A stretch of DNA of 64,000 bases, taken from Alkalispirochaeta sp. Its GTDB lineage: Bacteria > Spirochaetota > Spirochaetia > DSM-27196 > Alkalispirochaetaceae. The DNA is taken from positions 288,001 to 352,000 of the forward strand of contig CBDESZ010000025.1 in assembly GCA_965242725.1 (NCBI GenBank), written 5' to 3'. The notes below the pieces were generated by a model, which had not been told where the DNA came from, did no database searches, and saw only the letters and a program-made list of their open reading frames with translations. Made by a program: the position numbers and the translations under genes. Positions 855 through 24,918 of the stretch are shown piece after piece (position 1 is the stretch's first letter; each line of letters starts with the position of its first letter).

Positions 855-926
855 TGTCGCATTATTTGAACGTCAGTATATATACTGCAACAATGTCATT
901 CTCAATCGCCTTTCACGCTTTGTCAA
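855..926 (-). promoter_or_regulatory. gdhA sigma70-type promoter plus tandem operator
   Basis: TTGACA(926-921)-17 nt-GAGAAT(903-898), then TGTTGCAGTATATATACT-ga-CGTTCAAATAATGCGACA (892-855). Confidence 0.7.
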
Positions 927-952
927 GGAAGAATTATCGGATCGATTTTTTC

Positions 953-1025
953 TTGACAGTCCGAAGGTTCCGGTGCAGAATAGGTCTTGTTGCAAGATAG
1001 TAACATATGTTCAAATAACGGAACA
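953..1025 (+). promoter_or_regulatory. Aminotransferase-operon promoter plus tandem operator
   Basis: TTGACA(953-958)-17 nt-CAGAAT(976-981), then TGTTGCAAGATAGTAACA-ta-TGTTCAAATAACGGAACA (988-1025). Confidence 0.75.
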
Positions 1026-1052
1026 CAGAATTATATAATAGGAGATGGAATA

Positions 1053-22190: not shown

Positions 22191-23182
22191 TGGATCTTCT
22201 CTCCCTGAAGTTGGATGCCGCGGTTCCCGTCGATGCGATTTCGACGACCGCCGTTCATATAGCTTCGCAAATTTTCGGCCGCTTCGGCTACGCATCGTGT
22301 ACGGGATTCCACGGTCGCCCATCCTATGTGGGGGGTTATGATGCAGTTTGGCGCCGATAGGAGCGGATGGTCTCCCTCAGGCGGTTCCTCGTACCCGACA
22401 ACGTCGACGGCGGCGCCGGCGAGGCTCCCGTTGTGAAGCGCTTCCGCGACGGCGGACTCATCGGTGAGCCCGCCCCTGGAGGTGTTGATCAGGAGGGCCG
22501 ACTCCTTCATTTGCGTCAATGCCCGTCGATCAATCAGTTCCGTCGTCTCTTCCGAAAGGGGGGTGTGTAACGTGACCACATCCGCCGCAGCGAGCAGATC
22601 GGACCACGAGAGCCACCGGACCTCGACACCGGGTATCGTCTTTCGCCGCGCCTCCCAGCCGAGGACCTTCATACCCAGGGCACCTGCGAGCTTCGCAACG
22701 GCCACGCCGATCGCGCCGAATCCCAGTATGGCGATAGATTTTCCCCGGAGTTCGAGAGCGGGGAAATCGGTATACGAGACCGGTTCGCCCCGACGCCATT
22801 TTCCCCGGTGAACGAGGGAGTTGTAGTCGCACACGCGGTGTGCCAGGTTGAGAATGAGTGCAAGTGTCAGTTCCGCAACGGAGTCGGTTGAATAGTCCGG
22901 GACATTTGTCACGGCAACTCCGGCGGACATCGCGGCGTCCACGTCAATTCGATCGTACCCTGTGGAAAAGAGCCCGATATACTTGAGCCGCGGCAGACGG
23001 GCGATACGTTCAGCGTGAAGAGCGACGTGATCCACGAGGATTGCGTCGGCGTCGGCGGCCAGTGAATCCAGAATGTCCTGGGAGAAATGGGGAGCCGCGG
23101 TGAAACTGCCCAGTTCATGAAAGGGCGACCACGAAATATCTCCGGGATTCACCCCGAATGCATCGATTGCAACGATCTTCAT
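22187..23182 (-). CDS. D-2-hydroxyacid dehydrogenase (glycerate dehydrogenase/hydroxypyruvate reductase-like)
   Basis: NPGDISW, TGYD, NVPDYST, ILGFGAIG, INTSRGG, EEPP, ITPHIGW; start MKIVAID at 23182. Confidence 0.9.
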   Translation of the reverse strand: MKIVAIDAFGVNPGDISWSPFHELGSFTAAPHFSQDILDSLAADADAILVDHVALHAERIARLPRLKYIGLFSTGYDRIDVDAAMSAGVAVTNVPDYSTDSVAELTLALILNLAHRVCDYNSLVHRGKWRRGEPVSYTDFPALELRGKSIAILGFGAIGVAVAKLAGALGMKVLGWEARRKTIPGVEVRWLSWSDLLAAADVVTLHTPLSEETTELIDRRALTQMKESALLINTSRGGLTDESAVAEALHNGSLAGAAVDVVGYEEPPEGDHPLLSAPNCIITPHIGWATVESRTRCVAEAAENLRSYMNGGRRNRIDGNRGIQLQGEKIQ

Positions 23183-24831
23183 TCTGCTCCCGGACACTGA
23201 GACGCGACGGAATCGGGAACCTTTCCGGCAAACTCCCCCTCGAAATGGGCGTGAAACTCCCGGGCGAGGCGTTGTGCGTGTTCCTCGTATGCTTCGGTAT
23301 CCTTCCACGCCATGCGGGGATTCAGCACCTCCCGGGGAACCTCCCGACATGTCACCGGTATGGAGAGGTTGAAAAACGGTTCCTTTTCAAATTCTCCGCC
23401 GTCCAGCTCCCCCGCGAGTGCCGCTTTTACCATGGAACGGGTCATGGCGATGTCTATCCGCCTGCCCGTTCCGTAGGCACCGCCGCTCCATCCGGTGTTG
23501 ACGAGGAACACCCTGGTCTGATGGCGATCGAGTTTTTCGCCGAGGAGATCGGTGTAGTCCTTGGGGTTACGGGGCATAAAGGGTGCGCCAAAGAATCGGG
23601 AGAAGACGGATTGGGGTTCCACAACACCCGTCTCCGTACCGGCCAGCTTGGAGGTATATCCCATCATGAACCAGAACATCGCCTGCTCGTTGGTCAGGCG
23701 CGCAATGGGCGGAAGTACACCGTAGGCGTCGGCGGTAAGGAAGACGATTGTCCGGGGATGCCCGCCCATGGACGACTCCTTGATGTTGGAAAGGTATGTG
23801 AGCGGGTAGGATGCCCGGGAGTTCTGGGTGAAGCGGTCATCATCGAAATCGAAGGCACCGGTGGGATAGACCATGAGATTTTCGACGAGCGCGCCGTGAA
23901 AGAGGTAGTGATCCGGGTGAAACACTGCGTGATACACCTCAGGCTCCTTGCGCGGATTCAGCTGGTAGAGTTTTGCGTAACAGCCGTTTTCAAAATTGGC
24001 TATTCCCGTGTCGCTCCATCCGTGTTCATCGTCACCCAAAAGCGCCCGGTCGGGAGCCGTAGAAAGGGTGGTCTTCCCCGTCCCCGAGAGTCCGAGAAAG
24101 ACGGCGATATCACCGCTTTTTCCTTCATTCGCACTGCAGTGAAGGGGCAGCACCTCCTGCTCCGGCAGGTAGTAGTTCATTACGGTAAACATGAGTTTCT
24201 TGATTGCACCCATGTAGGACGAGCCGAAGACGATGCCGATGCGGCGGTCAAAGTCCATGACTACTGCCATCGTTGAGGTTGAGCCGTCGGCGAGTTTTCT
24301 CAGCCGCCCCTCGTATCGCTCAGGGTGAAGTTTGTCGTACTGATTCACCAGAAGGTAAAACGGATAGTCCTCAAAACAGCTCGATTCGATTCCTGTAGGT
24401 TCCGGACGAAACATATTGTCTATGAACAGACCCGCCAGTGGGTTGTCTACAATTGAACACACCGGGAGTGCGTATGAAGGATCCGCTCCGATCGCCTTTT
24501 CCTGGACATAGACCTTCGGCTTCAACTCCAGCGCCTGCATCGCATCCTCAAATATCATGTCGAAGGTTTCTTCGTCGATGGCGATCGAGTAGGGTGAGTT
24601 CCAGTCAATCGTATTTTCACTCTCCGGGCGCCTGACGATCATCGTGTCTTTCGGACTTCTTCCCGTGGAATCCCTGGGCGTCCACGTGACGAGAGTGCCG
24701 CTTTCAAGACGTATCGCGTTCCAGTGGCTCACGGCATTATCAATCAGGACGCGCCGTGTCGGATTCCGAAAGACCTTTCCCGTCCGGTCGGCGAGGGTCC
24801 TGTCTATCCTCTGATGGTGAGTCTCGTGCAT
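23179..24831 (-). CDS. pckA: Phosphoenolpyruvate carboxykinase (ATP)
   Basis: TGRSPKD, LHCSAN, GLSGTGKTTLS, LGDDEHGW, ENGCYAK, FLTADAYGVLPP, LVNTGW; ATG 24831 behind GGAGG. Confidence 0.95.
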   Translation of the reverse strand: MHETHHQRIDRTLADRTGKVFRNPTRRVLIDNAVSHWNAIRLESGTLVTWTPRDSTGRSPKDTMIVRRPESENTIDWNSPYSIAIDEETFDMIFEDAMQALELKPKVYVQEKAIGADPSYALPVCSIVDNPLAGLFIDNMFRPEPTGIESSCFEDYPFYLLVNQYDKLHPERYEGRLRKLADGSTSTMAVVMDFDRRIGIVFGSSYMGAIKKLMFTVMNYYLPEQEVLPLHCSANEGKSGDIAVFLGLSGTGKTTLSTAPDRALLGDDEHGWSDTGIANFENGCYAKLYQLNPRKEPEVYHAVFHPDHYLFHGALVENLMVYPTGAFDFDDDRFTQNSRASYPLTYLSNIKESSMGGHPRTIVFLTADAYGVLPPIARLTNEQAMFWFMMGYTSKLAGTETGVVEPQSVFSRFFGAPFMPRNPKDYTDLLGEKLDRHQTRVFLVNTGWSGGAYGTGRRIDIAMTRSMVKAALAGELDGGEFEKEPFFNLSIPVTCREVPREVLNPRMAWKDTEAYEEHAQRLAREFHAHFEGEFAGKVPDSVASQCPGAE

Positions 24832-24846
24832 ACAACCTCCCTTTGT

Positions 24847-24918
24847 TGTATCATTATATGAACGACTGTTACAATTGTGAGACAATATCAGTGTAAGTTG
24901 GGTCGATGCCGCTGTCAA
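24847..24918 (-). promoter_or_regulatory. pckA operon promoter plus tandem operator
   Basis: TTGACA(24918-24913)-17 nt-TACACT(24895-24890), then TGTCTCACAATTGTAACA-gt-CGTTCATATAATGATACA (24884-24847). Confidence 0.72.

Follow-up and report, generated by a model that had tools for sequence, protein, structure and literature searches.

A 38-bp IclR-type tandem operator at five promoters of a likely ectoine regulon in Alkalispirochaeta, predicted to form the first codons of its own regulator gene

Here we describe a 38-bp element, two 18-bp boxes separated by 2 bp, that stands at four promoters in a 64,000-nucleotide stretch of an Alkalispirochaeta sp. genome (hereafter the window; GenBank assembly GCA_965242725.1, contig CBDESZ010000025.1, positions 288,001 to 352,000 of the forward strand) and at a fifth promoter outside it. 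We consider it probable that the element is the operator of IclR1, an IclR-family regulator encoded in the window, that its five promoters serve an ectoine/hydroxyectoine regulon, and that iclR1, read from a leaderless mRNA, has this operator as its codons 1-13. An earlier sequence-only reading had described the four sites in the window but missed three points, namely the position of the iclR1 operator inside the iclR1 reading frame, IclR1 as the common factor and the earlier description of such an architecture for IclR regulators.

A rare tandem element at promoters of one gene island and one remote operon

The four sites in the window (Table 1) were found with the coordinates and letters that the sequence-only reading had given them, and so were the 15/18 identities it had drawn between the second boxes of the gdhA and pckA sites and between the first boxes at 988 and 14876. 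As had also been claimed, each site follows a TTGACA-17 nt-(-10) promoter at a distance of 5-8 nt (-10 hexamers GAGAAT, CAGAAT, CACAAT and TACACT, with gaps of 5, 6, 8 and 5 nt, for operators 1 to 4, respectively). Pairwise identity among the four is 24-27 over 38 bp, and the three operator promoters that fall within positions 1-20000 rank among the best four of 21 promoter-like matches. An Rfam search of the window returned rRNAs and one tRNA only, and thus the 38-bp element corresponds to no known RNA family.

In position weight matrix scans, a check that the earlier reading had proposed, the four sites were top-ranked in the genome and the motif was not frequent at unrelated promoters. In leave-one-out scans of the 4,344,907-bp genome each held-out site was the best non-training match at 27-33 bits, with a margin over the next site of merely 0.7 bit for that of iclR1. 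A matrix trained independently on 56 sites, all from other genomes, gave the four window sites 44.5-54.0 bits; of the remaining independent loci a single one reached 23.2 bits and all others stayed below 15. The genome maxima of 12 column-shuffled matrices were 6.4-14.5 bits. The element is therefore real and rare in the genome. Three candidate sites considered along the way (C5:49291, C12:75543 and C1:40572) were dropped, scoring no more than 15 bits with the larger training set.

The earlier description of two imperfect palindromes stands only approximately. Taken singly, the boxes have little palindromic symmetry (6-12 of 18 positions self-complementary), and a 38-bp pseudo-dyad fits better: across the 2-bp spacer there is mirror symmetry between the inner arms and between the central AT positions, while each box by itself is asymmetric and the two boxes differ systematically. 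The closest published counterpart is group 1, subgroup iv (NGT-12-ACN) in the IclR survey of Suvorova & Gelfand (2021, PMC8222616), which likewise has 18-bp boxes with centres 20 nt apart; the survey's tandem operators also combine self-regulation with control of adjacent operons. Against the subgroup consensus NGTYCRAW4TYGRACN, box 2 matches on average 12.9/16 and box 1 10.8/16 positions over 62 distinct sites, the values within the window being 12-14 of 16 for box 2 and 10-11 of 16 for box 1, which is here a fixed variant. Box centres are 20 nt apart in all 62 sites, a spacing fixed by the 38-bp matrix itself, and alternative spacers of 0-6 nt, tried at 11 regions without a strong site, rescued none. 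Tandem sites with spacings of 18-22 nt are described for 94 of the survey's 181 IclR groups, and the survey points to asymmetry in the TtgV tetramer, whose operator complex (PDB 2XRO) is a close known system; the tandem architecture is thus ordinary for IclR regulators. Spirochaetota have no row in Table 2 of that paper, and a term search of its five supplements, which may use locus tags only, returned no Spirochaeta, Treponema or ectoine. Consensus, spacing and conservation (see below) all support the earlier proposal that the element is a tandem site for an IclR protein, placed at about +1 of predicted sigma70-type promoters; the site would cover +1 to +38, so that repression would presumably work by blocking RNA polymerase.

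The named relatives are all Spirochaetota metagenome-assembled genomes (Spirochaeta, Alkalispirochaeta, Spirochaetaceae and others), and such spirochaetes are known as anaerobic fermenters of saline habitats. At a threshold of at least 45% identity for iclR1 orthologues, iclR1 and DoeA co-occur in the same 10 of 41 relatives compared, and the iclR1 profile is found in 19/99 genomes of the order and 2/400 other genomes in the phylum sample; none of the single-contig genomes searched had iclR1. Among 44 iclR1 loci fetched by protein similarity the site stands at the iclR1 start in 41, two loci end before the start, and no site was found in L069, a partial match at 39%; the site is also present at iclR1 in both of two further genomes outside the training set (44 and 49 bits), with an in-frame RTG start (R, purine). 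The gdhA of the island is a second copy, whose clade (at least 75% identity) occurs in nine of the 10 iclR1-positive but none of the 31 other genomes, and eight of these nine copies have their own site, as opposed to 0/21 housekeeping-type gdhA loci (at most 17.4 bits; 30 of 54 gdhA matches fetched overall). Similarly, a pathway-specific pckA clade is present in 8/10 iclR1-positive versus 0/31 other genomes, with a site at six of the eight copies (the G029 copy of pckA lies inside an operon behind eutB), as against at most 11.1 bits at five loci of another pckA clade; doeD has the site in eight distinct contexts. A second asd, 88% identical to that of the island, lies at G000:C5:104401-107141 beside a pckA of the other clade; no operator was found upstream of this pckA, nor there in the genome scan.

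The sequence-only reading had tied gdhA and pckA to ectoine genes "independently of gene proximity". The tie itself is strengthened, in that the extra copies occur only in iclR1-positive genomes and mostly carry the site; the independence was overstated, given that a single 25-kb island holds the two genes. What does speak for control irrespective of gene proximity is the fifth site, 283 kb from the island, ahead of an operon (L147, G000:C25:5860-8596) of an AgcS-family carrier and a DoeB-like M20 amidohydrolase that is 45% identical to the M20 amidohydrolase of the island. Orthologous AgcS operons in G032, G058 and G060 have the site too, scoring 26-33 bits; of the four genomes with this site, three have it in inverted orientation. 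The G059 AgcS locus ends before the promoter, the G077 locus (66% identity) has no site, and none of at least 8 bits was found at 19 more divergent agcS loci (25 of the 46 matches were fetched).

IclR1 as the probable common regulator

IclR1 matches PF09339 and PF01614 over their cut-offs, its best sequence and fold matches are IclR structures with 1MKM first, and its recognition helix is strongly conserved. We regard IclR1 as the most likely repressor at the 38-bp sites on comparative grounds, because orthologues of the other two IclR proteins of the island were not found in site-bearing genomes: IclR3 in none of the five tested, and IclR2 in six of 10, these being G029 (99% complete) and all five of a second set, with an IclR2 orthologue found in the four genomes tested alongside G029.

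An alternative that we judge unlikely, although it fares best among the rivals, is that IclR1 and IclR2 act jointly, as a mixed tetramer or with one dimer on each box, which would explain why the boxes differ. The gene iclR2 indeed lies directly upstream of iclR1 in many loci, the helices of the two proteins are close, and the boxes have different conserved letters. However, the two-box pattern persists where IclR2 orthologues were not detected, in G029 and in all five others (of no stated completeness), and iclR2 itself was preceded by no operator in 14 of 14 loci. Beyond iclR2, no operator of the IclR1 type was found before mfs, the gene for a protein resembling pyruvate phosphate dikinase (PPDK), doeA2, the PRK07475-family gene that we take to be racemase-like, armt or the aspartate kinase gene.

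Divergently from iclR3, a different 18+2+18 pseudo-dyad at 17811 scores -12 on the IclR1 matrix and is likely an IclR3 operator for amidohydrolase, HutG-like and doeA2 genes that would fall outside the IclR1 regulon. The IclR3 helix of the window is divergent; in G019 the counterpart site scores 29-32 bits and the IclR3 helix is IclR1-like (two cases only). Assignment of the remote fifth site to IclR3, with whose site it has letters in common, was rejected: its score on the IclR1 matrix is 23.7, and it is kept in G032, where no IclR3 orthologue was detected.

Ectoine as the likely substrate

The best PDB match of DoeA1 is the ectoine hydrolase DoeA (E 1.9e-106, the next family at 3e-27), with 468 bits versus an NCBIfam cut-off of 613. 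The best PDB matches of DctP are 3FXB, 3GYY and 2VPN, the first being UehA and the last TeaA (PMC5924519), and similarity to these two predicts an ectoine-type importer of the tripartite ATP-independent periplasmic (TRAP) family. EutB passes one of two cut-offs (NF005680, 414 vs 413), EutC scores under its ectoine equivalog cut-off, and no EctA or EctC was found above cut-off in the genome, which favours a degradative role. None of the 12 PF00171 matches in the genome, among which an Ssd/DoeC aldehyde dehydrogenase would be sought, lies on contig C25; the operon has asd instead. Just outside the window an aspartate kinase belongs to a clade present in 10/10 iclR1-positive versus 1/31 other genomes. 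Its gene is linked to the cluster, though with varying gene order, and iclR1-positive genomes have no other match at E 1e-30. A second DoeA-like hydrolase, doeA2 (window 20174-21364, +), is 50% identical to DoeA1 and occurs in nine of the 10 iclR1-positive relatives, with weak sites ahead of it in L046 and L050 only.

It is improbable, in our estimate, that the regulon instead degrades a related cyclic imino acid or an N-acyl diamino acid, or supplies 2,4-diaminobutyrate (DABA). This would fit with DoeA, DoeB2 and EutC scoring under their ectoine equivalog cut-offs, and Asd, aspartate kinase and the DABA transaminase could also work in the biosynthetic direction. Yet the closest solved relatives are the ectoine hydrolase DoeA and the ectoine-binding UehA and TeaA, EutB passes its NF005680 cut-off, and the biosynthetic EctA and EctC are not found in the genome.

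The closest ectoine systems in the literature are those under EnuR/AsnC/NtrYX control in Ruegeria pomeroyi and Sinorhizobium meliloti (PMC5924519) and the PucR-linked clusters in Bacillota (PMC13188858). According to the main text of these papers, ectoine consumers were described in Proteobacteria and later in Thermodesulfobacteriota, Bacillota and Actinomycetota, with EnuR, AsnC, NtrYX or PucR as regulators, and EnuR responds to N-alpha-acetyl-DABA and DABA. As described there, these systems share with ours ectoine hydrolase, EutB, EutC, an aminotransferase, a UehA/TeaA-like TRAP importer and, by prediction, a repressor released by the substrate. They differ in that our regulator is an IclR protein rather than a MocR/GabR one and its host a spirochaete, that the cluster has an M20 amidohydrolase and Asd in place of EutE and Ssd, and that dedicated gdhA and pckA copies belong to the regulon. 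The regulators of the island are of the IclR family, and contig C25 has no PF00392 match that could represent an EnuR-type protein (GntR plus aminotransferase domain). The word IclR is absent from the main text of both papers, and our literature search, which left most subscription journals outside its coverage, found no IclR or spirochaete ectoine regulon. What appears to be new is the regulator family and the phylum for ectoine use, together with Asd, gdhA and pckA copies reserved for the pathway, and the predicted self-encoding operator.

The operator within the iclR1 reading frame

The distance from operator to helix-turn-helix is identical and in frame in 34 of 38 distinct iclR1 contexts, whereas at the other genes the operator-to-gene offset is variable (13-48 nt for doeD, 9-49 for pckA and 12-84 for gdhA). 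In 32 of the 34 in-frame contexts the base before the operator and its first two bases read GTG (20) or ATG (12), a triplet that occurs in the same place at only 9/24 other promoters. Because this GTG or ATG overlaps the operator start, and in 29 of 34 contexts lies 6-8 nt after the -10 box, the iclR1 mRNA is likely leaderless, with the operator as predicted codons 1-13. A strong ribosome site precedes the iclR1 start in L046 only, four other short matches overlapping the promoter, as opposed to 23 of 24 non-iclR1 sites with a ribosome site before the gene. L046 lacks the promoter and has its GGAGG directly ahead of this same in-frame ATG; in L050, also without the promoter, a GGAGG lies further upstream. 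Third codon positions are invariant at 5/12 operator codons versus 0/32 downstream, as expected under constraint at the DNA level, while the invariant Tyr16 uses both of its codons (19 TAC, 15 TAT). Residues 1-17 of IclR1 have an AlphaFold confidence score (pLDDT) below 50. Two genomes outside the training set follow the in-frame rule, one with a linker shorter by one codon. The longest open reading frames suggest other starts, which were rejected: TTG 14913 for iclR1 lies inside the promoter, and ATG 855 for gdhA inside the operator.

We think it quite improbable that the regulon is as described but iclR1 starts after the operator or is read from a longer message, in which case the operator would be non-coding or the mRNA not leaderless. 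Such a start is seen in four loci (the L058-L062 group), whose own ATG comes right after the operator and directly before the Tyr16 equivalent; the sites of L046 and L050 have no TTGACA promoter ahead of them, and iclR1 must there sit on a longer message; and promoters of any kind commonly have a purine at the transcription start. Between the operator end and Tyr16, however, none of the 34 in-frame contexts has an in-frame ATG, GTG or TTG, and the TTG of the -35 box would fall out of frame in some loci, the spacing ranging from 5 to 11 nt. On a quick tree rooted with IclR2 and including one distant long-branch row, the L058-L062 group forms one clade (SH-aLRT, a likelihood-ratio branch support, of 100) nested among coding-operator rows, and loci with the iclR1-doeA1 order likewise group as a clade (96), placed inside iclR1-doeD. 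This suggests, dependent on the IclR2 rooting, that one ancestral operon was split and that each half retained an operator. Extra sites (22-26 bits) surround a second asd upstream of iclR1 in L058, L059, L061 and L062, and L059 and L061 have many apparent frameshifts that are probably assembly errors.

Leaderless self-regulators are known, and a coding operator may have precedents. Reports on the QseC/C-proteins (PMC8789080) and on CrtR of Corynebacterium glutamicum (PMC5401885) describe regulators made from leaderless mRNAs that control their own promoters, and leaderless mRNAs are described as common in at least one spirochaete, Leptospira (PMC5243855). In the systems so described the sites lie at or between promoters, in contrast to the predicted arrangement here, in which a complete tandem operator would be the first 13 codons, its first two bases completing the start codon. 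Site centres in the IclR survey likewise peak at -3 to +1 of gene starts (PMC8222616), whereas here the whole 38 bp lie inside the regulator reading frame with the centre at about +20 from the start codon. Our literature search, with the coverage stated above, found no report of an operator forming the first codons of its repressor.

Binding of the sites by an unlinked regulator from another family is very improbable: TGTT...AACA ends are common in several regulator families and the genome has 26 GntR-domain matches (20 above cut-off), but none of these matches lies on the island contig, the site keeps its place at the iclR1 start in several Spirochaetota families, and the IclR consensus and spacing fit.

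Several observations weigh against an IclR1 ectoine regulon with a coding operator. Two in-frame loci lack the RTG (TAA-TTG and CTG-TTG, the TTG being the next codon), and the four loci that start after the operator show the coded arm to be dispensable. Box 1 differs from box 2 and fits the published consensus less well, and the site is decayed at the G008 pckA and weak at the G019 gdhA; the genomes are moreover related, so that the counts are not independent and should be read as patterns, not statistics. The IclR2 recognition helix is very similar to that of IclR1 (identical in one locus), and iclR2 adjoins iclR1. DoeA1, DoeB and the aminotransferase score under NCBIfam ectoine cut-offs, the substrate being assigned by similarity; the 12 aldehyde-dehydrogenase matches elsewhere in the genome could perform the DoeC/Ssd step; and the aspartate kinase gene has no operator and may have a biosynthetic role.

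In the mechanism that we propose, an IclR1 tetramer over the predicted transcription start of the five promoters would keep the regulon shut, its two helix-turn-helix pairs reading the two boxes, 20 bp apart and on one helix face, and blocking RNA polymerase. Leaky, low-level expression of the predicted leaderless iclR1-doeA1-eutB-eutC unit might supply both repressor and the inducer-making hydrolase, and a breakdown product would release IclR1, by analogy with EnuR most likely N-alpha-acetyl-DABA or DABA. After induction, TRAP import would be followed by DoeA ring opening and M20 deacetylation, and transamination of the product would yield aspartate semialdehyde, which Asd with the co-inherited aspartate kinase, both presumably running in reverse, could convert to aspartate plus ATP. 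GdhA would regenerate 2-oxoglutarate as amino acceptor with release of ammonia, and PckA would move oxaloacetate to phosphoenolpyruvate. Although speculative, it is possible that these spirochaetes ferment scavenged ectoine through a reversed aspartate pathway with a gain of ATP, under an IclR protein whose operator is its own first 13 codons, an ancestral arrangement escaped once by the clade with its start behind the operator; we hold this fuller picture only tentatively.

The operator marks pathway members among central-metabolism genes (gdhA, pckA, asd) and so outlines a route, probably fermentative, by which a common osmolyte would be used. The start of iclR1 would be a clear natural example of a single sequence in four roles (start site, start codon, operator and protein), available in about three dozen variants that include forms keeping or losing each role, and IclR1 with its highly specific 38-bp site is a candidate sensor for ectoine breakdown products.

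Table 1. Operators and genes of the predicted regulon and its surroundings (window positions unless a contig is named; tentative functions are predictions).
Feature	Position	Strand	Remarks
Operator 1 (gdhA)	855..892	-	about +1 of promoter; -35 at 926-921, -10 at 903-898
Operator 2 (doeD operon)	988..1025	+	about +1 of promoter; -35 at 953-958, -10 at 976-981
Operator 3 (iclR1)	14839..14876	-	about +1 of promoter; -35 at 14913-14908, -10 at 14890-14885; in frame, predicted codons 1-13 of iclR1
Operator 4 (pckA)	24847..24884	-	about +1 of promoter; -35 at 24918-24913, -10 at 24895-24890
Fifth operator	G000:C25:5860-5897		283 kb from island; after TTGACT-17-CATACT promoter-like sequence
gdhA, glutamate dehydrogenase, pathway-specific copy	1..837	-	continues beyond window; start 837 after AAGGAG ribosome site
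doeD/atf-like DABA-type class III aminotransferase, asd, M20 amidohydrolase (DoeB2-like), TRAP dctPQM	1053..7708	+	operon; terminator-like hairpin at 7736-7767
doeA1 (ectoine hydrolase-like), eutB, eutC	10881..14047	-	downstream of iclR1; terminator-like hairpin 10862-10841
iclR1, predicted regulon repressor	14077..14877	-	predicted start GTG 14877-14875, 266 aa
iclR2, paralogue directly upstream of iclR1	14942..15733	-	possible co-binder, apparently not required
iclR3	16962-17759		opposite direction to amidohydrolase at 17870
Different 18+2+18 pseudo-dyad	17811..17848	+	about +1 of TTGACG-17-TACTAT amidohydrolase promoter; divergent from iclR3
pckA (ATP-type phosphoenolpyruvate carboxykinase, pathway-specific), 2-hydroxyacid dehydrogenase, PRK07475-family protein	21447..24831	-	
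Aspartate kinase (L146)	G000:C25:286022-287338		just left of window, convergent with gdhA

Two further features of the window were noted. A 995-aa protein encoded at 7793-10780 (+), with a PPDK N-terminal ATP-binding domain, a weak receiver-like domain and no operator, adjoins the cluster or gdhA in many relatives. A complete rRNA operon (16S, tRNA, 23S, 5S) occupies positions 39552-44901 (+).

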